Below, one piece after another: positions 14,862 through 27,703 of a stretch of DNA of 64,000 nt. The notes beneath the pieces were generated by a model that searched no databases, was not told the DNA's origin, and worked only from the letters and a program-made list of their open reading frames with translations. Source of the stretch: an uncultured Elusimicrobia bacterium (lineage in GTDB: Bacteria > Elusimicrobiota > Elusimicrobia > 2-01-FULL-59-12); assembly GCA_963702895.1 (NCBI GenBank), contig OY969767.1, forward strand, positions 928,001 to 992,000, read 5' to 3'. The position numbers and the translations under genes were made by a program. The number at the start of each line of letters is the position of its first letter. Position 1 is the first letter of the stretch.

Positions 14862-16566
14862 GGCCACACATAGGTCCCAATTTTTCACCGCTCGGTCGCC
14901 GCGGCGACCAGGTTTCTCGCCTGCTTCGGGTACCCTTGGCTTCCCTCGGAGGCGGTTCAGACTACCGTCTGATCAATTGTCGGCCTTTTGCGGCAGTTTT
15001 CGCCGCTCCGACCCTCTGTTCGGTTCTTTCCCTCCGTCGATGCCTTCGGTGTCGCCGTCCCGTCAATCAACCGGTAGACGCGATCACCACAGACAGCCCC
15101 AACACGCCATAGCGCGCCTCTTCAAAAACCCGCCGGAACGGGTAGTTTTCCGGAATCTTTAACCACAGATAGCGCGACTTCCGGCACACTGTCCCGGCCA
15201 AGCGGATCAGCCGGTGCCGCAGCGTCTGGATCGTGAAGCTCTGCCAGGCTTTCGGCAGAACCAAATGCTTGAAGGCTGCCGTGACCACCGACGCCAACAT
15301 CGCGATCTGGAAATAGGCGGCATTGGCCATAAAATCCCGGCACGGCAGCTTGGATAATCCAAACCCACCCTCGCTCTTCATCTCCCGGTTCACGTTCTCC
15401 GACCCATCCTGCCGGTTACGGTGAAATTGCAGAACCAATCCCGGTTCCCATGTGAACCGCGTCGCCACCGCATGGTATTCAAAGTGCTCCTTATCGAAAA
15501 GCTCGCCTTGCGGCTCCTGCTGCCAGCGCACCACGACCAACCGAAATGCGGCGATATCCTTGTCCGCCTCCCCAAAAGCATGCACCGTCTCGGCAATCTC
15601 AGATCCCTTATGGGGATAGACCGGCGAGTTGTACTTCTTCCAGGCCTTCTCCGGAATCGACCGAATCGCTTCCAAAACGGCATCATCCTTGCGCGCCGTG
15701 ATGGTGAAGTCCACCCCGGCCCGATCCAATTCCCGAACCACCTTCGCCTGATACCCCGCGCTGTCTGAGCGCGCCCTCATCCGCAAACCGGAAAACTGCC
15801 GCAAGACCCGCCGCAACAAACTCGCCAGGTTCGCCATCGGGCTCGCATTGCCTGCCCGAAACGCCCCGGCCAGCGGCATCTTCAGCTCCGCGCAACTGAC
15901 CATCACCGGACAATACCCTTCCAGTCCATCGTAATTCATCAAGACGCCTTCCTTCTGTGACTCCAAAAAATAAGCGTCGATATCGATCGTCACAATAGAC
16001 AGCTCGCAGGCCCGGATCACCTTCGCCGCCGTCTTGAGCTGGACCCATCCCAACCCATGAATCGTCTTGCGCCCAAAACGCCGAAGAAATTCGCCCAACG
16101 TGTTCGCTGCCGGAAAATCCCCCAGCAAGCGCCGTATCCCCTCGTCCCCTTGCAGCAGCCCGATGTCTTCGAGCGCTTCCCCGCCCGCCTGGATCGATCC
16201 CATCAACCCCAAAATACTCTCGGCAGGATCGTATCCCCGCGCCCGCTCCTTCACCGGCAGCGCATTGAGCCGCTCCTCCAACCCCAGGCTCCGTGCCGTC
16301 CCCAACAACAACGGCAGCCCTGCAAAACTCGTCACCGCTTGATCCGTCGTCGAGACCTTGTATACGTCCAAGTTCTTCAGTAACATAAAAGCACCTCGCA
16401 GTTCAGATTCCACTCTGGCTTGCGAGGTATTTTATTGCCTCTGCGCGTCGCTGTAAAATCACGCGCTGCACCCTTTTTCAAAGCCTCCTGTGTTGACCCC
16501 TCATTTTTCACCCAATAAGTGAAACCCTTCGTCTTCGATCCCGCCACCAACACCTACACCAAGGCC
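14862..16566 (-). mobile_element. IS1380-family insertion sequence (ends approximate)
   Basis: Contains the transposase; AGGCC occurs at both putative flanks (14861-65, 16562-66); terminal inverted repeats are weak. Confidence 0.7.
15067..16413 (-). CDS. IS1380-family DDE transposase
   Basis: TSFAGL, IDIDA, R.DSAGY, EN..RE.K, F.ANAAYF, LRHRLIRLAG. Start may be 16386. Confidence 0.9.
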   Translation of the reverse strand: MESELRGAFMLLKNLDVYKVSTTDQAVTSFAGLPLLLGTARSLGLEERLNALPVKERARGYDPAESILGLMGSIQAGGEALEDIGLLQGDEGIRRLLGDFPAANTLGEFLRRFGRKTIHGLGWVQLKTAAKVIRACELSIVTIDIDAYFLESQKEGVLMNYDGLEGYCPVMVSCAELKMPLAGAFRAGNASPMANLASLLRRVLRQFSGLRMRARSDSAGYQAKVVRELDRAGVDFTITARKDDAVLEAIRSIPEKAWKKYNSPVYPHKGSEIAETVHAFGEADKDIAAFRLVVVRWQQEPQGELFDKEHFEYHAVATRFTWEPGLVLQFHRNRQDGSENVNREMKSEGGFGLSKLPCRDFMANAAYFQIAMLASVVTAAFKHLVLPKAWQSFTIQTLRHRLIRLAGTVCRKSRYLWLKIPENYPFRRVFEEARYGVLGLSVVIASTG

Positions 16567-19215: not shown

Positions 19216-19816
19216 AAAGATATTTCCAGCCCTGCAGCATTTTCAGAATCCCAAAGGTCCGCTCGACGCGCTTCACGAATTTGCGGGTTTCGGGGTAAGG
19301 AATGTCACGGATTTCAAGGACGGGCTTGCCTTGGCGCCACTGGCTCGTCACGCCGGGCCCGGCGTTATAGGCGGCCAGGACCGCTACGTCATCGTCAGGA
19401 AAGAGGAATTGGAGCTTCGTCAGATAATAGACACCCAGATGGAGATTCGTGTCGGGATCCTTCAAGTCATCATCGTTTTCAATGACAACACCGATCTCGG
19501 GGGCGATCTCACGCGCCGTCGAGGGCAAGATCTGCATCAGTCCCACCGCGCCACGGGACGATCGCGCTCCGGGGAGAAAGCCCGACTCCACCTTGATGAT
19601 CGCCATCACCCAAAGGGGATCGCATTTGAAGACGCCGGCATATTTGTTGATCAAAGGTTTGTTCAAGACGGGGCGAAACCAGATCCAAGCGGTGCCCGAG
19701 TAGATCAAGGCGAGGAGCAGAAGAACCACGGCGAGCAGCAACCCGCGGAATAAGCGGCGCTTGGTGCGCTCGACCGGCGGCATCCTGCGCAGCTCGCGCG
19801 CGTACACGCCTACCAT
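19193..19816 (-). CDS. Lytic transglycosylase (SLT domain)
   Basis: KVESGF, GAVGLMQI, LAAYNAG, PYPETR. Confidence 0.92.
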   Translation of the reverse strand: MVGVYARELRRMPPVERTKRRLFRGLLLAVVLLLLALIYSGTAWIWFRPVLNKPLINKYAGVFKCDPLWVMAIIKVESGFLPGARSSRGAVGLMQILPSTAREIAPEIGVVIENDDDLKDPDTNLHLGVYYLTKLQFLFPDDDVAVLAAYNAGPGVTSQWRQGKPVLEIRDIPYPETRKFVKRVERTFGILKMLQGWKYLFGMAHGK

Positions 19817-21117
19817 CGCGCGGCCTCTTTCTTGGGGATGGCCTTGTCCGCGTTCAAGGAAAGATTGAGGGACAGAACTTTTTGGAGCCGTGATTCTTTG
19901 ATGTCTTGGCTGACATCATCCGGTTCTTGAGCGGAAGTCGTGCCGGGCCTTGGCGAATATTGAAAGGCGAAAAGGCCATTAAACCGAACTTCTTCAATCA
20001 GGGAGAGGCTCTCGTCAAAATCTTCATCCGATTCGCCGGGATAACCGACAATGATGTCGGTTGTCAGGCTGATCCCAGGCAAGGCCTTTCTCAAACGTCT
20101 TACGACATCCAGATAATCCTCACGGGAGTAAAGTCGCTTCATCCGGGAAAGAACTGCGCTCGAGCCGGACTGAACGGGCAAGTGGACATGGCGGGCGACT
20201 TTCTCGCACGATTGGATGGCTTCCACCACGCGCTCACGCATGTGGACCGGATGAGGGCTCATGAAACGGATGAGTTCGACGCCTGGGAGGGCGTTGACGG
20301 CGCGCAGCAAGTCCGCGAAATCAACGACCGTATCGGGGTAACGGGGTAACGGGGTAACGGTGTCACGGCTTAACTGAGATGTTGTGACTTCGTTACTCCG
20401 ATACTCCGGTACTCCGGTACTCCGATACTCCGGTACTCCGATACTCCGGTACTCCGATACTCCGGTACGGTAGTAATAAGAATTGACGGTCTGTCCCAAC
20501 AGCATCACTTCGCGGTATCCTTCGGCAACCTTCTTCTGAATTTCGCTCAGGATCTCGGCGACGGGGCGGTACTTCTCCCGACCGCGTACCTGGGGCACGA
20601 TGCAGTAGGAGCAAGCGAGGTTACAGCCGCGCATGATGGTGATGTAGGCCGTTGACTCATTTCCAAAAAGGCCGTCCGACGTGCGACGTCCGACGCCAAT
20701 CTCCGGACCTCGGACCTCGGACCTCGGACGAAAAAGCGCAGCTTCATTTCCCCAATTCCACCTGTCCTTCAACACTTGCGCGATCGCTTCTGGAAAGTTT
20801 TCGATTTGGGTAGCGGGCGAGACAAGATCTACAAAAGGGTATTTCTTTTTGAGGGAGTCCCCCCAGAGGCTTGCCGCGCAGCCCGCGACAATAAGGAGCC
20901 GGTCCGGATTTTCTCTTTTCCAGTCGCGGAGTCGCCCGAGGTTGGAGATCGCCTTGTGTTCGGCATGTTCGCGCACGGTGCAGGTGTTCATGATCAGGAC
21001 ATCGGCGTCATCGGGTTCCAACGTCCGGACGAGCCCGCGCTCCCGGAGCGGCTGGGCCATCTCCTCCGAATCCGCGACGTTCATCTGACAACCGTAGGTG
21101 ATGAGGTGGTATTTCAT
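19810..21117 (-). CDS. miaB: tRNA methylthiotransferase MiaB with two repeat-derived insertions and no TRAM domain
   Basis: TYGCQMN, NTCTVRE, GCNLACSYC, LLGQTVNSY, HLPVQSGS, DIIVGYPGE, YSPRPGT. Confidence 0.92.
   Translation of the reverse strand: MKYHLITYGCQMNVADSEEMAQPLRERGLVRTLEPDDADVLIMNTCTVREHAEHKAISNLGRLRDWKRENPDRLLIVAGCAASLWGDSLKKKYPFVDLVSPATQIENFPEAIAQVLKDRWNWGNEAALFRPRSEVRGPEIGVGRRTSDGLFGNESTAYITIMRGCNLACSYCIVPQVRGREKYRPVAEILSEIQKKVAEGYREVMLLGQTVNSYYYRTGVSEYRSIGVPEYRSTGVPEYRSNEVTTSQLSRDTVTPLPRYPDTVVDFADLLRAVNALPGVELIRFMSPHPVHMRERVVEAIQSCEKVARHVHLPVQSGSSAVLSRMKRLYSREDYLDVVRRLRKALPGISLTTDIIVGYPGESDEDFDESLSLIEEVRFNGLFAFQYSPRPGTTSAQEPDDVSQDIKESRLQKVLSLNLSLNADKAIPKKEAARW
20330..20468. 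repeat. Paired octamer tandem arrays inside miaB
   Basis: (CGGGGTAA)x3 at 20334-20357 and ~9 copies of NTACTCCG at 20393-20464. Confidence 0.95.
20673..20730. repeat. Paired heptamer arrays inside miaB
   Basis: cgtccgacgtgcgacgtccgacg ... ggacctcggacctcggacctcggacg. Confidence 0.85.
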
Positions 21118-21603
21118 CTACATCCTGAATATGGGAACAAGCATTATCCTGAATAGCGAAAATATAAGCACCGATAGTGAAAGAAAAGAATATACCAGCC
21201 AACCCGCTGATGTGCGGTAAACGAACTTCAATACAATCCACTTGGCGGCCCCAGTCACAAGAGCTTCCAGCACAAGCCAGAATAACCAATGGGGTCCCGT
21301 TGGGTAAACATAGCTTGAAAGTTCAGCAGACCAATATTTCTCTGTTGGGGTTGGGATGACGAAGCTCGAACCCGCAACGGTTAGAGCCGTCATGATGAGA
21401 AGAGCGCTGGCTTGTTGCTGACGTGAAAGGTTGGAAGACCGCAATGAAATCAAAAAATCGATTGTTGCGGAAACGACCAAACCCGGAAGCAACGCCCCTA
21501 GATTTTGAAAAGGTTGCTTTCGAAAAATAGCGACCTCTAAACGGCTCCATACTATTGGTTCACCCAAATAGCTCATATCATGCAGCCACCTTAAATTGGG
21601 CAA
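21118..21603 (-). CDS. Hypothetical membrane protein (cassette abutting miaB)
   Basis: About 4 hydrophobic segments; its TAG stop directly abuts the miaB ATG. Confidence 0.55.
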   Translation of the reverse strand: MPNLRWLHDMSYLGEPIVWSRLEVAIFRKQPFQNLGALLPGLVVSATIDFLISLRSSNLSRQQQASALLIMTALTVAGSSFVIPTPTEKYWSAELSSYVYPTGPHWLFWLVLEALVTGAAKWIVLKFVYRTSAGWLVYSFLSLSVLIFSLFRIMLVPIFRM

Positions 21604-21980
21604 AATGCACTTTCTGCTCCCACCGTAAGAGCTTGCACAACGGGGGAAAGTCTTTGAGTGGCGGCTTCATCCGACAATACTGCTTTGCATCCAATTTGTT
21701 CGGTACCATCGCCAAGCGCTAGCGTCCCCATCCTTTGAGCTTAGAGGAAGGAGCAGTCCTCGGCGGTGCGCGAGATGGGTGACAGGCACCAATCTAACGC
21801 ATTTCATAGTATTTTCCTCGTTCTTAGATCTCGGTCCCATTCTTCGCTGGACGGTTGTTACGCGATGATCACCAAATAATCTTCTTCCGGGCTGCACACA
21901 ACGTGGATTGTCCTCGCGGCAGAGGTAATTCCCATCCTATGGCAGCTACGCATAAGGCAACCTTTATGCGAATCGAATGG

Positions 21981-22181
21981 TCAGGCGGCTTTTCGAGGAT
22001 GGAGAGCCTCATCCAGACTGACATAGCCAGCCTGGATCGCAGAACAAACGCGCATAAGATGAAGCTCATACATCATGTCATCAGTAGGGAATTCCTCGCG
22101 AACATGCTTCGCCAATAGCTGTAGCTTCTCTGACGGAACCTTGGCCTCTCGGGCAACTGCTTCATAGTCGAAATAACGCAT
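21981..22181 (-). CDS. Small hypothetical protein, probable antitoxin-like partner of the PIN protein
   Basis: RBS AAGGAG; lies 12 nt after the PIN stop; REEFPTDDMMYELH. Confidence 0.7.
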   Translation of the reverse strand: MRYFDYEAVAREAKVPSEKLQLLAKHVREEFPTDDMMYELHLMRVCSAIQAGYVSLDEALHPRKAA

Positions 22182-22193
22182 GATATCGCTCCT

Positions 22194-22649
22194 TTAAATT
22201 TCTGGCGGAGCTACGATCTCAATGGTCGGCAACCCACGTGCTGTGTTGAGTTGGTTGACTAACGCCCGCCGGCGCCGGTTGACCAGATGCTTAAAATTCC
22301 ATGACAGAAGGATGTCTTGCCGCGACAAAACTGCTGCCGAAACGTGAAGCGCGTCGTCAGCCATCGTTGGCAAGAAAATGCCGCCATCAATATAATGCTT
22401 TGCCAATTCTTTCATTTCGGCGTCGATCTTCAACAGATTAAATCCTTCCAGTAATTTCAGAAGCTTAACGCGATGATCCGGATCGGGAGTTCGGGCCAGT
22501 TCTTGACGCGCCAACTCCGATGTCGAGAACTCATACTGATGAAGCCGCTTCCAAAATTCTGTTGTATCGGCCTTCCGCTCCGGCGCGCGGTCATCGAGAT
22601 AGGCGCTGAAAACGGAAGTATCCAAATAAACTCGGAGCTTTATAGACAT
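22194..22649 (-). CDS. PIN-domain (VapC-like) toxin
   Basis: VYLDTSV..., DALHVSAA, LLSWNFKHLVN. Confidence 0.9.
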   Translation of the reverse strand: MSIKLRVYLDTSVFSAYLDDRAPERKADTTEFWKRLHQYEFSTSELARQELARTPDPDHRVKLLKLLEGFNLLKIDAEMKELAKHYIDGGIFLPTMADDALHVSAAVLSRQDILLSWNFKHLVNRRRRALVNQLNTARGLPTIEIVAPPEI

Positions 22650-22862
22650 CGTATCACCGCGATAATTTTAGCACCTTGAAGCTCACTTGCTTAAAATCTT
22701 TGAGCGCTTGAAAAGCTGCTGGATAGGCTAAAAGGCCTGTTCGTCGCCTACTGAAAGCGTCTGGGCTACGTAGAGCACCCTCATCAAGGCGGCTTCCTCC
22801 ACGCTGACGGGTTGATATCCAATTTGTCGCATATGGCCAGCCGTAGGTAATGAGATGATATT

Positions 22863-23171
22863 TCATGGATGTCCGCTAAGTAAGAAACGTTGTGCCAACT
22901 TGCCCAAACCATAAAGGAGGAAACAATAAAAGGTCGCAACAAGGATAACTCCCGGCCAAGTGGGGAAGGACCAATAAGCGCTCATGCCAAGGCCCAGGGG
23001 ACGTAGCACTGGTCGTGCAGGCAGATATATTGCGTAGGCGAGTGATAGCAGATTAGTCGCCAGAACCGGTAGGTGCTCTCCCCATAGCGACAATACCGCC
23101 AGGCTGGAGATATTCCACACCAAGAATGCGCCGGGAAGAAGAAGGGCCAGATGCCGCTTAAGGTATGTCAC
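22863..23171 (-). CDS. Hypothetical membrane protein, copy A
   Basis: RBS GGAGG with GTG start; about 3 TM segments; stop overlaps the miaB-repeat ATG; near-identical to 25685..25993. Confidence 0.7.
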   Translation of the reverse strand: MTYLKRHLALLLPGAFLVWNISSLAVLSLWGEHLPVLATNLLSLAYAIYLPARPVLRPLGLGMSAYWSFPTWPGVILVATFYCFLLYGLGKLAQRFLLSGHP

Positions 23172-23463
23172 ATTCCTCCCCTATCGCATGCTCGGCTGCC
23201 CATGCGAGCGTCCGCGCAATACCTTCCAGTCTATCTGCCGCCAAAATCCGCTTGGCAGAACAGTGAATCCAATCCATTCGGCCAGCCATAGGCGATCAAA
23301 AAATAGTTCATTTTTAGGGTTGTTTTGAGATGCCGGATTCATTAGAGCCAAACCCATCGATGAAAACTTCAGTGGGTGGTCAGAACCGTACGTAACCACG
23401 CCGGAGATCATATCGTGAATTTGGAGGCCATGGGCCTCTCAGAAAGAACAGGCCTCAGTCACT

Positions 23464-23745
23464 TTAAGCGGCCCGGTGGTGCGAGCGGTGGTTGATGGCG
23501 CGGGCCACCAGCGGATAGCGTTCGGGATGCGTCAGCGATTCCAAGGCCAGATCGATATCAAGGTCCGGCCAATAGAGGTGACTCCCATGGAGCAGGCTCA
23601 CATGGTGAATTTGGTTTATGGTGGCGTTTCCGAACCACGGGAACAGCCGATAAGGCAAAAAGTATTCTTGTCCTTTCACCAGCAGCCATACAGCCTGCTT
23701 GTTGACACTCAAAATCTCAACGGCTGAAATGCTCTTTCCATGCAT
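23464..23745 (-). CDS. DUF2442-like protein (TA-like pair)
   Basis: FLPY..FPWF, LYWPDLDIDLALESL; likely start MHGK at 23745, overlapping the upstream gene. Confidence 0.8.
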   Translation of the reverse strand: MHGKSISAVEILSVNKQAVWLLVKGQEYFLPYRLFPWFGNATINQIHHVSLLHGSHLYWPDLDIDLALESLTHPERYPLVARAINHRSHHRAA

Positions 23746-23956
23746 GGATAATCTCCACTTTCCGAGATTCAATGATACGGCGTAACTCCAGGAGTCGTCG
23801 CGACGTGAAACCACTATGGGTCGCAAGGGACACAATGGGTTCAAGCCAGAATTTCGCTTCTCCTTCTGGCGAGACCACATGAACATGAATGCGTGATTCT
23901 TCGCGTGAAAAGAAGAAAAAGCGGTAATTCTTATGACGAAATATCGTTGGACTCAC
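23717..23956 (-). CDS. DUF4160-like protein (TA-like pair)
   Basis: PTIFR..YRFFFFSRE..HVHV....GEAKFWL...AW.EHF. Confidence 0.85.
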   Translation of the reverse strand: MSPTIFRHKNYRFFFFSREESRIHVHVVSPEGEAKFWLEPIVSLATHSGFTSRRLLELRRIIESRKVEIIHAWKEHFSR

Positions 23957-24004
23957 GGGTTATGACTAAAATTATACCCTTTCTCCTCTTGCTTGTGGTA
24001 TCCC

Positions 24005-24196
24005 GCGCAAACGCCCCAGGTTGGAGAGGGCCTTGTGCTCGGCATGCTCGCGCACGGTGCAGGTGTTCATGAGGATGACGTCCGCTTGTCCGACGTCCGA
24101 CGTCTGAAGGAACCCGCGATCCTGGAGCGGCTGGGCCATCTCCTCCGAATCCGCGACGTTCATCTGGCATCCATATGTAATCAGGTGGTATTTCAT
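24005..24196 (-). pseudogene. miaB: 64-codon duplicate of the miaB N-terminus
   Basis: MKYHLITYGCQMNVADSEEMAQPL...MNTCTVREHAEHKALSNLGRLR, then unrelated sequence. Confidence 0.92.
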
Positions 24197-24762
24197 TTGA
24201 GCTGTAGACTGTTAAGAATCTCTAGGTAAATATTCTTGAACAGTGGTTGTGAGAGTGGATAGATGATTTCGATAACGTCAGCTTTTTTATAAGCCTGAAT
24301 GTAGTAGTGTGCGTTACGCCCGATCTCAGAAACCTCGCAACGGATGGCAGGACGTTTGCCAACGGTAACCTGTTCTACCTGCAAGGGTGGAGTTGTGGCG
24401 TTGTGATAAAAATCTTTTGCCTCAAACCACTTATGTATGGCGAGCTTCTGCGGATTTTGATTAACACCTAAATTTATAGTGAAGTTGGATTCGTTATCTA
24501 AGCTTTTGTCATTTTCTTCCGAAAACTCTTTCACATTGCTTAGAGTAACGCGGTATAAGTCTGTAAACGTTTTTTCTCGCACATGCCATTCCGATGGATA
24601 TCGGAGCTGAATTCCTGCCGTTTCCAATTTTAAGTTTGACCATGGCGATGGATCAGACATAACGGGCTGTACGCTGCACAGTGTCAAAAAGCTGGTAAAC
24701 GCAGCGGTTGCTAATATGTACACGACATTTCTCAATCTTTGCATGGCTTCAGCGCACCTCAA
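24193..24762 (-). CDS. Secreted hypothetical protein (possibly PsbP-like fold)
   Basis: Signal-like N-terminus; GIQLRYPSEW motif; ends ILNSLQLK with TGA overlapping the repeat ATG. Confidence 0.7.
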   Translation of the reverse strand: MRCAEAMQRLRNVVYILATAAFTSFLTLCSVQPVMSDPSPWSNLKLETAGIQLRYPSEWHVREKTFTDLYRVTLSNVKEFSEENDKSLDNESNFTINLGVNQNPQKLAIHKWFEAKDFYHNATTPPLQVEQVTVGKRPAIRCEVSEIGRNAHYYIQAYKKADVIEIIYPLSQPLFKNIYLEILNSLQLK

Positions 24763-24813
24763 TTGATATCCAATTTGTTTTATATGGCCAGCCGTAGGTG
24801 ATCAGGTAATATT

Positions 24814-25383
24814 TCATTCGATAACCTGAGCTTCTTTTTGAAGTCGCAACCATTCGGCTTCGATCGCCAACTCTTTGGCCCAAAGGTTGATGTAAGTTAA
24901 ATCAAGTTTGTTGAATTGCACTTCATAAACACGAAGCGCATCGATGAATTGTTTTTCGCTGCCACCGGATTGTTGTGCCCATCGCAGCTTCATTAGGATC
25001 GTATCTTCAGCCCGAGTCACCTGCATCTTCAAGCCGAAGAAATCTTCAGTGTATCGCCGCTGAAATCGGGACTGATCAAAGGCATCAGAAGTCAGGGGCC
25101 AGAAGTCGACCTTGTCCCCACCATTGACATCGATGAGGTTCACCATTTGACCGGATTTCAAAGCGTCGCGGAGGCCATCCGCGTCTAGATAATAGTGAGG
25201 GGACGGGAAGGCGGCGAGAAGCCGTGGGATGGAGGCCGCTTGGATTGCGATGACCACATCGATATCATGCGTGGCTCGCGGTTCTCCTTGCAGGCTGGAA
25301 ACCACCGATCCCGTGATCATGTAATCGATTTGCGCGGATTCGAGTGTTTGAACGACTTTGCTTAGTAATTCCTGTTGTGACAT
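24814..25383 (-). CDS. Nucleotidyltransferase-fold protein
   Basis: YMITGSVVSSLQGEPRATHDIDVV; EDTILMKL.W; KQ..DA. Confidence 0.8.
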   Translation of the reverse strand: MSQQELLSKVVQTLESAQIDYMITGSVVSSLQGEPRATHDIDVVIAIQAASIPRLLAAFPSPHYYLDADGLRDALKSGQMVNLIDVNGGDKVDFWPLTSDAFDQSRFQRRYTEDFFGLKMQVTRAEDTILMKLRWAQQSGGSEKQFIDALRVYEVQFNKLDLTYINLWAKELAIEAEWLRLQKEAQVIE

Positions 25384-25565
25384 TTATCGAGCCGGTCGCG
25401 GACAATTTCTTGTAGTTTTTCTCCTGAGATCCCGGCGAAGCGTTTGCGCAGTCCATGAATAAAGAGCTGTTTGGAAAATTCAGACAGTTCAAACGCCTTT
25501 TGCAGCCGCTGAGCAGGCGACAACGCGCGCAACATCCGCAGATAAACGGGAGAGTTCTTTTTCAT
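25362..25565 (-). CDS. Small antitoxin-like protein upstream of the nucleotidyltransferase
   Basis: LRALSPAQRLQKAFELSE; overlaps the downstream gene; TACAAT -10-like box upstream. Confidence 0.7.
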   Translation of the reverse strand: MKKNSPVYLRMLRALSPAQRLQKAFELSEFSKQLFIHGLRKRFAGISGEKLQEIVRDRLDKCHNRNY

Positions 25566-25684
25566 GTGGGATGCGACTATTGTACTCAGATTATGCGGGC
25601 ACCTGAACGGCTCCGATTGCGTGGCACTGATTGTTCAGTAGGAACCCTGAACGTATGGCCAGCCGTAAGTGATGAGGTGGTACT

Positions 25685-25993
25685 TCATGGGTGTCCGTCA
25701 AAAAAGTAACGCTGTGCCAACTTGCCCAAACCATAAAGGAGGAAACAATAAAAGGTCGCAACAAGGATTACGCCCGGCCAAGTGGGGAAGGACCAATAAG
25801 CGCTCATGACAAGGCCCAGGGGACGTAGCAGTGGTCGTGCAGGCAGATAGATTGCGTAGGCGAGTGATAGCAGATTAGTCGCCAGAACCGGTAGGTGTTC
25901 TCCCCATAGCGACAATACCGCCAGGCTGGAGATATTCCACACCAAGAATGCGCCGGGAAGAAGAAGGGCCAGATGCCGCTTAAGGTATGTCAC
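25685..25993 (-). CDS. Hypothetical membrane protein, copy A'
   Basis: Differs from 22863..23171 at 6 of 102 residues. Confidence 0.7.
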   Translation of the reverse strand: MTYLKRHLALLLPGAFLVWNISSLAVLSLWGEHLPVLATNLLSLAYAIYLPARPLLRPLGLVMSAYWSFPTWPGVILVATFYCFLLYGLGKLAQRYFFDGHP

Positions 25994-26189
25994 ATTCCTC
26001 CCCTATCGCATGCTCGGTTGTCCATGCGAGCGTCCGCGCAATACCTTCCAGTCTATCTGCCGCCAAAATCTGCTTGGCAGGATAGTGAATCCAATCCATT
26101 CGGCCAGCCGTGCCACTTCCTGTTTTGAGAATAGGCGGCACCGTTCGGGCACAAACGCATGCCCTCGCGGAAGGTGATGAGGTGGAATT

Positions 26190-27023
26190 TCACGTGGCGC
26201 CTCTCTTCTTGGCGACGACAACGAGAGAGCCTCCCCACGGAAGCGACCGGCCTGAGAAAATCAATCTCTCGTCGGCCCGCATCACGAAATCTCCCATGGC
26301 ATCCAACCACGGCGGGAGATGCAATTCGCTGTCATCCATTCCGCTCCGTTTTTTCATAAACCGATTCTTGACTCTTGAAAGATACATGGCAGGAAAGAGT
26401 GAAAACACAAAGGAGCTGATGAAAGAGACCTCGAGCCCTGCTTGAGACACCTTTTGCACCAGTTCTTTGCGAGAGTACCTGCGTTTATGCATTGCAACAA
26501 CGTCAGTTTGACTCCAGAGGGATGGGTGTTGAGGGACTGTCAAGAACAGTAGTCCGTTGACTTTCAGAGCAGCATGGATCTGTTTAAGGACGATGACATC
26601 ATTCTCGATATGTTCAAGAACATCAAATACCCCAATTCCATCGAAGGCTTCCACGTAAGGTAAGCGCGTTGCATCCAGCTGAACCAGTTCCACACCATCG
26701 AGCCTCTTGGCAGCCCATTTTAGACCAGCGAGGTTCAATTCTGCCCCGGTCAAATGAAGATTCTTAAATTTCGACAGCCCGTTCAGAACAAATCCTGTTC
26801 CGCATCCAATCTCGAGAAACTTCGCTGTGCGATTTCCAAAGTGCTGGCATATGAGGTGCTCAAGGATACGTTGCCTGCTACGGAACCAAAAACTTCCCGC
26901 CTCCGACCTGTAGAGCGCTGGGTAGCTTTCAGGAGGAAAATCAGAATTTCCGGAACCCAGTTCGGGAGCGTAACATTTGATGTTATCGATAACTACGTAT
27001 GAAGGTTCAGTCCCTTCGCTCAT
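26190..27023 (-). CDS. Class I SAM-dependent methyltransferase
   Basis: FWFRSR, LEIGCGTG, FDVLEHI, TVP..P.LWS..D....HKRRYS. Confidence 0.9.
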   Translation of the reverse strand: MSEGTEPSYVVIDNIKCYAPELGSGNSDFPPESYPALYRSEAGSFWFRSRQRILEHLICQHFGNRTAKFLEIGCGTGFVLNGLSKFKNLHLTGAELNLAGLKWAAKRLDGVELVQLDATRLPYVEAFDGIGVFDVLEHIENDVIVLKQIHAALKVNGLLFLTVPQHPSLWSQTDVVAMHKRRYSRKELVQKVSQAGLEVSFISSFVFSLFPAMYLSRVKNRFMKKRSGMDDSELHLPPWLDAMGDFVMRADERLIFSGRSLPWGGSLVVVAKKRGAT

Positions 27024-27356
27024 GAATAGGACCCTGGGTGTTCTGCATTGCTTTGGCGAGCCGTGACGCCACCCGCGAAATTAGATACGTCCGACGCCAT
27101 AGCACCGTTGCAATATCCAGTGGACAGCGAATTCTGGCCAAAAAATGGCGGCAATGCCAATCGATGAGAAGATTGCGATGACCGACATGGGGATCATAAG
27201 GCCGCGTTCAAACATTAGCGAAAAACCTTTCTGTGCCCATCGGGAGCGTCTGGGCCGCCTTCAGGAACCTTGCTTCTGGGTACTCCTCGGCGAAAAGATG
27301 CTGAATCAAACCCATTCGACCAGACATAGGTGATCAAGTGGTATTTCACGTCGGAG

Positions 27357-27362
27357 ATTATA
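27357..27362 (-). promoter_or_regulatory. -10 box (TATAAT) 7 nt upstream of the outermost miaB-start copy
   Basis: Minus strand reads cagTATAATctccgacGTGAAATACCAC. Confidence 0.6.
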
Positions 27363-27703
27363 CTGCTTCTAGGGCAGAGCCCAAACTGGATGACCATGAG
27401 CGAGAGGAGAGAGATGAAGCAGGTGGATGAAAGAAAGAAATACGAGATTTCATCATGCCGGTTTCCTATGGTGAAGCTGCCCGCCTATGCTCTTCCTCAA
27501 AAAAAACTCACCAAACGGAGGGCCGCCAATAGGCGACCCGGTGCTTCAACGTCACCCAGTGTTCGGCGCTCAAAAAAAAACGCATCATTTCTTGAAATAA
27601 TATAGGTAAAGAACGCATCTAGAATACATGCAGAGATGAGATGTTAACTAACCTATCTTAAGCCGGAAAATGAACACTTGCGGGAAATGCCGAGTCCTGA
27701 CAA

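Follow-up and report, generated by a model that had tools for sequence, protein, structure and literature searches.

Why does the beginning of a housekeeping gene recur, copy after copy, upstream of the gene itself? The question is raised by miaB in a 64,000-nt window (contig OY969767.1, positions 928,001 to 992,000) of the genome of an uncultured Elusimicrobia bacterium (GCA_963702895.1; hereafter G000), a single-contig assembly of 2.72 Mb that is 98% complete with 1.8% contamination. The original prediction, made from the letters of this stretch, proposed that gene cassettes had repeatedly inserted into the miaB 5' end, each bringing a fresh start that regenerated the gene, in an undescribed platform resembling an integron. 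We found that the array is real, recurrent and linked to a large serine recombinase (LSR). It is highly likely that an LSR clade targeting miaB built it and that its stacked cassettes are now orphaned in G000.

Repeated miaB starts and their junctions

All eight predicted copies of the miaB start were found again on the minus strand, where they bound seven cassettes of 445-1,749 bp in the same orientation (Table 1). The target gene itself scored above the MiaB cut-off (TIGR01574: 385.5 versus 355.3 bits), with no TRAM domain match in its protein. When the first 27 nt of miaB were compared with the whole genome at up to 7 mismatches, seven places matched, every one inside the array; the copy at 23311 was too degenerate for this search and was identified by direct reading. 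Because the genome-wide matches fall in the array only, a chance origin of the copies is excluded. No other core gene proved to be preceded by repeats of its own start: among 2,384 roughly called G000 genes, the scan gave 31 matches. Apart from miaB and a fragment of it, which fit the pattern, these were repeat proteins, paralogues or short coding repeats.

The likeness to miaB stops at the TG of codon 10 in J1-J4, J6 and J7, and this TG is the centre of a short dyad. A junction profile was built from 53 sites in G000, same-order relatives and metagenome loci. At 37 of these the right arm is not miaB sequence and starts directly after the TG, with the consensus GCCATA-N5-TTGAT; over its first 6 nt this arm is a mirror image of the left one (profile similarity 0.76, versus 0.27 for the native miaB continuation), and the non-coding TTGAT box is conserved at +12 to +16. 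A dyad with a 2-bp core is the form expected of a serine-recombinase site, and the sequence evidence places a crossover at the central dinucleotide inside an imperfect dyad. The outer-arm symmetry shifts typical of attP and attB gave no clear peak among the collected sites.

Two further features bear on how the copies arose. The two membrane-protein cassettes of the original prediction are one 445-bp unit at two positions (cassettes 2 and 6), with 422/445 nt identical, ends lying exactly on junction sites and dissimilar flanks (14/60 and 13/60 identical). Differences between stranded and working starts were 23 synonymous versus 8 nonsynonymous in G000 and 45 versus 14 across six arrays, compared with an expected 21% synonymous (L075 was omitted for its atypical working start). 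This preponderance of synonymous change indicates that the stranded copies were once working gene starts, not decayed local duplications.

We then compared the locus across relatives, 30 of which were found and 20 of which could be read upstream of miaB. Upstream copies of the miaB start were present in five of the 20, four with cargo of 468-1,530 bp and one (L012) free of cargo; in a sixth relative, G007, the left junction lies 9.8 kb upstream of miaB. As had been predicted for repeated site-specific insertion, cassette number and content differ between relatives at a fixed miaB junction. The junction pattern occurred in 17 of 393 genomes of the class, versus 7 for a reversed control, and on inspection one of the 17 matches looks like chance and one is ambiguous. 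A metagenome scan added 12 loci, including arrays of 8, 8, 3, 3 and 2 sites, three of which continue into intact miaB; L069 (8 sites), L075 (8), L076 (3) and L072 (3) are independent arrays, and L063 was excluded as a separate count because it repeats the L002 arrangement. In all, 29 recombinase-less units span 67-3,700 bp (median ~0.8 kb), and a 67-nt unit is found in L075. Viral contigs gave no junction matches; they held 20 distant LSR loci, and none of the top three, which were checked, has miaB.

These comparisons make it highly improbable that the array is a misassembly of strain variants, or that the miaB start was duplicated locally in tandem and the copies then decayed neutrally. L012 shows what such duplication might look like, since its positions 1-240 hold a cargo-free 60-nt unit (right arm plus miaB start) three times in tandem before miaB, reaching the contig end. 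Against this, the G000 repeats are short and divergent with mostly synonymous differences, the genome is a single contig of high completeness, the same architecture recurs in other assemblies, and short contigs from a different sequencing run agree with stretches of cassettes 6 and 7 to within 0-1 mismatches.

The serine recombinase at the miaB junction

The original prediction had called for a search for a recombinase co-occurring with such arrays, and one was present in relatives. An LSR gene with Resolvase, Recombinase and Zn-ribbon domains overlaps the replacement miaB start in both L002 (same genus) and L007 (same family), so that the tail of the recombinase gene doubles as that start in another frame. 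L007 is a complete 9.8-kb element carrying the LSR, a Rep ORF2/G2P protein and a second resolvase, and no conjugation or relaxase families were detected among its 7 proteins scanned. L002 has the order LSR, 655-bp one-gene cassette, miaB, and this cassette occupies the position that the insertion model predicts for a later arrival. Across 401 sampled genomes of the phylum, 16 of the 17 LSR loci at E<1e-100 adjoin miaB and the remaining one ends with its contig, whereas none of 13 weaker loci does. The out-of-frame overlap of the LSR tail with miaB lets the protein sequence reveal the target. Among the 16 closest homologues, 14 have a tail of frameshifted miaB or junction sequence; so do 7 of the following 21, but none of 127 more distant ones. 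One cluster with this signature includes an Omnitrophota-labelled member, and the miaB clade was present in 2 of 12 genomes of the order. Judged from these sequences, the inserting enzyme is very probably the LSR seen at the miaB junction in relatives.

In the mechanism we propose, the LSR would recombine the TG in codon 10 of miaB (attB) with a matching site on a circle, composed of a 29-nt miaB-start copy, the TG and the non-coding arm. Integration would leave the old start upstream and supply miaB with a new one, which rebuilds the target, so that the next circle would enter between the previous cassette and miaB. The newest cassette would thus adjoin miaB, farthest from the native promoter. 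Autonomous elements would carry the LSR, its gene tail encoding the replacement start (the only complete example also has a Rep gene), while small recombinase-less cassettes would use the same sites, moved in trans or in cis; G000 would have retained cassettes only. Because the left arms mimic attB, internal junctions would be attP-like and the last attB-like, and blocks might therefore excise without a directionality factor.

Several observations weigh against this mechanism. No cognate LSR was found in G000, where the best match (E 3.6e-19) is a different, tRNA-adjacent LSR, and none was found on the contigs of L069, L075 or L076. The 17 top LSR loci include L077, which was part of the query; a single family, f15, supplies most LSR-miaB pairs, which hence are not independent; and the rule defining the tail signature was written after the tails had been seen. 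No circle or empty-site junctions were detected among low-depth contigs of the one DNA run found. At L073 (2980-3960), two miaB-type junctions precede a different gene, which we take to be queA-like in a queA-tgt-yajC-like operon; this is possibly a secondary site or a relocated array. Finally, two predicted copies in G000 are real starts but depart from the pattern: that at 26193 (J2) is one site split by a 60-nt insertion, and that at 24196 (J5), thought to comprise only the first codons, runs on as miaB and is not cut at the TG. Like J5, L069:7268 and L075:9095 continue as miaB beyond the TG, and together with the split J2 they imply that other processes act too.

The LSR that G000 does encode, at 373 kb, is an unlikely candidate for the enzyme, with 21% identity to the clade and a position adjoining tRNA-like sequence. 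The surrounding island (G000:C1:368000-374700) contains a tyrosine-recombinase gene and ends, with this unrelated LSR, at the tRNA-like sequence.

Integrons, and clusters of attC sites lacking integron integrases (CALINs), form ordered rows of small, co-oriented, often toxin-antitoxin-like cassettes, some arrays having no recombinase. The resemblance holds here for the co-oriented small cassettes (among open reading frames, ORFs, of 100 aa or more, 38 of 41 share the strand of miaB), for a cargo rich in toxin-antitoxin-like genes and genes of no known family, and for the loss of the recombinase in G000, and to this extent the integron-like description stands. Membership does not: no IntI match exceeded the cut-off in G000 (best 91.7 versus 265 bits, TIGR02249), a simple pattern search without a covariance model gave no attC-type core pairs (RYYYAAC...GTTRRRY) in 21000-27400, and the junctions are TG-centred dyads linked to an LSR clade. 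A host gene start serves as the platform, and incoming cassettes would lie farthest from the native promoter, unlike in integrons. That the locus is a true integron or CALIN with unrecognised attC sites is scarcely credible. With neither a cognate LSR nor an integron integrase, the array is orphaned in this genome.

Cassettes, their expression and their origin

The cargo families agree with those first proposed, as does the lower GC content of the cassettes (0.42-0.53, versus 0.57 for the genome). Family matches were obtained in G000 for the methyltransferase, the nucleotidyltransferase-like protein, DUF4160/DUF2442 and PIN; the Rv0078B-like small protein matched below cut-off. An atlas search gave a PsbP-like lead only for the 189-aa protein of cassette 4 and no match for the 161-aa protein of cassette 7. 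Across arrays the cargo consists mostly of genes of no assigned family, plus Fic, nucleotidyltransferase, ankyrin and toxin-antitoxin-like genes (68/102 ORFs scanned), and larger f15 elements carry restriction-modification genes. PADLOC matched one of 10 cargo proteins, in a generic methyltransferase stretch, and so no defence system is established. By eye, the small gene of cassette 7 starting MRYFDY (21981-22181) is resembled by genes at the miaB junctions of L009 and L067, which suggests a cargo pool shared among three genomes. Cassette 7 also holds a 153-bp remnant (21796-21948) that is 85% identical to G000:1900174-1900329, where the intact counterpart belongs to a small DUF4258/YgiT-like gene pair in another toxin-antitoxin-rich cluster.

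Table 1 Features of the miaB array, in window coordinates (J, junction; TG, crossover dinucleotide)
Feature	Coordinates	Strand	Description
-10 box (TATAAT)	27357..27362	-	7 nt ahead of the outermost GTG start; arranged likewise at miaB in congener G003 (L003)
J1	27321..27349	-	Stranded original miaB start (GTG); TG 27322-27321; attL-like
Cassette 1	26105..27320	-	1,216 bp; class I SAM methyltransferase (27023-26190)
J2	26105..26193	-	miaB-start copy split by 60-nt insertion (26171-26112); TG 26106-26105
Cassette 2	25660..26104	-	445 bp; 102-aa membrane protein (25993-25685); ends in J3 (start 25688, TG 25661-25660)
Cassette 3	24789..25659	-	871 bp; Rv0078B-like small protein (25565-25362), nucleotidyltransferase-like protein (25383-24814); ends in J4 (start 24817)
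Cassette 4	24168..24788	-	621 bp; GC 0.42; 189-aa probably exported protein; ends in J5 (start 24196)
J5	24004..24196	-	193 nt of divergent miaB 5' end (codons 1-64, 83% nt identity, open frame), then abrupt non-TG junction
Cassette 5	23283..24167	-	885 bp; miaB remnant, DUF4160 (23956-23717), DUF2442 (23727-23464); ends in degenerate J6 (start 23311)
Cassette 6	22838..23282	-	445 bp; second copy of cassette 2; ends in J7 (start 22866)
Cassette 7	21089..22837	-	1,749 bp; PIN (22649-22194), 66-aa partner (22181-21981), 161-aa membrane protein (21603-21118); ends in working miaB start
miaB	19810..21117	-	435 aa; regenerated target site at TG 21090-21089 (attB/attR-like)

The TATAAT predicted ahead of the outermost copy was found in place, and this copy retains the -10 box and GTG start, resembling the miaB of a congener; by this likeness the box is probably the original leaderless miaB promoter. 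A cassette inserted at the rebuilt site separates miaB from this promoter, and miaB then needs new expression signals. Three G000 cassettes have a -10-like hexamer of their own and 6 of the 8 L069 sites have a -10 box. Promoter-like sites overall numbered 6 against 7.4 expected, and a long distance separates the rebuilt target from the native -10 box; the originally proposed use of the miaB promoter as an integron-type array promoter is conjectural. Of the 6 G000 starts scored other than the outermost, 5 touch or overlap the stop codon of the preceding cargo gene (baseline 38%, 345/918), and the split J2 also overlaps a stop codon. At L075 none of the 8 sites is coupled and no -10 box of its own was seen. 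We therefore rejected translational coupling as a special feature, the enrichment being modest.

Within miaB, in-frame 8-nt tandem repeats at 20330-20480 add a low-complexity peptide inside the radical-SAM domain; runs of at least three of this unit occur at 15 places in the genome. A 7-nt repeat near 20700 (20700-20730) shows a 7-letter difference in two contigs of sequencing run X1. As had been noted, no transposase lies beside the array: the IS1380-like DDE_Tnp_1_4 transposase at 15067-16413 lies beyond mutS, downstream of it.

Mobile cassettes in the true sense and remnants are about equally likely as accounts of the small units. On the first reading, which we hold tentatively and a little below even, the array is a serine-recombinase counterpart of the integron, in which purpose-built, gene-sized cassettes with bare miaB starts at their right ends circulate in Elusimicrobiota (probably also Omnitrophota) and are shuffled singly by a visiting LSR. 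Single cassettes would be excised, shuffled and re-stacked through one reversible reaction. Any DNA arriving between the miaB start codon and the last junction could become a new cassette, the missing arm being contributed by the host miaB itself. One family may also flip or swap its LSR gene and its cargo as modules, each of them lying between inverted half-sites.

The alternative is that LSRs made the junctions but that the small units are deletion remnants of large elements, comparable to cis-mobilizable elements (CIMEs), and are no longer singly mobile. This is possible, but we judge it distinctly short of probable. Such a deletion route is described for CIMEs derived from integrative and conjugative or integrative and mobilizable elements (ICEs, IMEs) in the available portion of a review (PMC5704250). 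In keeping with it, recombinase-less f15 units still carry 85-100 nt of the LSR gene tail, a gene remnant lies inside cassette 7, J1, J2 and J6 are decayed, and G000 has no recombinase. However, G000-type cassettes have right ends like a bare miaB start (matching it at 10-12 of their first 12 nt, versus 5-7 for the LSR tail, degenerate J6 aside), the 445-bp unit stands at two positions with exact ends, and related left-end arms are joined to different cargo in different genomes (cassette 4 and L076, 27/29 nt). The 29 units, of median ~0.8 kb, also speak against it.

J5 raises a separate possibility, that part of the array arose when two arrays merged by homology, for example through transformation, with the resident miaB severed at codon 64 and cassettes 5-7 plus a miaB start acquired from a donor. 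Such an event could well have occurred, though we place it somewhat under an even chance, and it would complement the LSR mechanism without replacing it. J5 keeps an open, orthologue-like miaB 5' end, and the duplicated cassette occurs once on either side of it. On the other hand, the J5 fragment is not clearly nearer than the resident start to the 12 relatives compared, the TG-exact junctions are left unexplained, and an imprecisely excised circle would look alike.

Family f15 has an arrangement of its own. At L078, L082, L083, L084, L089, L090, L054 and L108, the LSR gene lies between inverted copies of a segment made up of its own 3' end and the site, these repeats measuring 124-207 bp; the LSR faces away from miaB in L084 and towards it in the other f15 loci, and many contigs break at the repeat. 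This region is possibly an invertible recombinase module. At G242:C15:594000-631000 (L052, L107, L108), two LSR elements stand in tandem at miaB, each with cargo, including restriction-modification genes, between inverted right-arm half-sites and the LSR between inverted left-arm half-sites.

Known systems and the meaning of the array

The closest working model, by analogy, is the composite island of the staphylococcal cassette chromosome (SCC), in which, in the available portions of PMC11470126 and PMC13739063, Ccr recombinases excise adjacent 17-26 kb cassettes singly or together. As in SCC and SCCmec, so far as these portions describe them, an LSR hits one housekeeping gene, att-bounded cassettes stand in tandem, and recombinase-less units lie beside recombinase-bearing ones, as in L002. 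The differences from the same accounts are the miaB 5' coding end with a TG core instead of the rlmH 3' end with a GA core, and cassettes of median ~0.8 kb, each of which must supply a working gene start. The recombinases here also fall far below the Ccr cut-offs (126 and 245 bits with the CcrB model, versus 900).

The integrases of dusA islands are tyrosine recombinases. The portion of PMC4482086 available to us places them in a tree of tyrosine-recombinase families and describes islands that enter a tRNA-modification gene at its 5' end and bring a substitute for that end, probably together with a promoter; the word 'tandem' is absent from that paper. Replacement of the target's 5' end is shared with our array, whereas the target here is miaB and the enzyme an LSR. 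Tandem accretion of ICEs and IMEs and the CIMEs left by it are covered by the review cited above. Like a CIME, the array in G000 retains att sites without integrase or transfer genes; unlike one, it has up to seven gene-sized units. Site-specific serine-recombinase IMEs disrupt their target genes in the part of the review available (PMC5704250), whereas the element here rebuilds its target, and where derivation by deletion is concerned, f15 units keep the LSR tail and G000-type units do not.

A catalogue of LSR targets (PMC10083194, available in part) lists UPF0004, the methylthiotransferase N-terminal domain, in 6 of 1,069 target-gene clusters, so the methylthiotransferase family is already a recorded LSR target; miaB, Elusimicrobia and tandem arrays are unmentioned in the portions of text and supplements available. 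No paper on miaB cassette arrays was found in a literature search covering titles and the starts of abstracts, with most subscription papers outside its coverage. The claim of an undescribed system thus holds for miaB arrays but not for the principle, which is described for SCC composite islands and CIME accretion: new here are the target, the enzyme clade and the gene-sized cassettes, while stacking and 5'-end replacement were already known.

Integron and island finders overlook such arrays, and accessory and candidate defence genes in these phyla are consequently under-annotated; the junction motif offers a simple handle for harvesting them. The LSR clade, a natural one with an inferred att core, many site variants and a site that regenerates after insertion, could lend itself to iterative genome engineering, and the array is a testable case for the birth of minimal cassettes. 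If the proposed reading is true, integron-like storage of single genes would have evolved on a second enzyme chemistry, with the start of a housekeeping gene as its self-renewing landing site.

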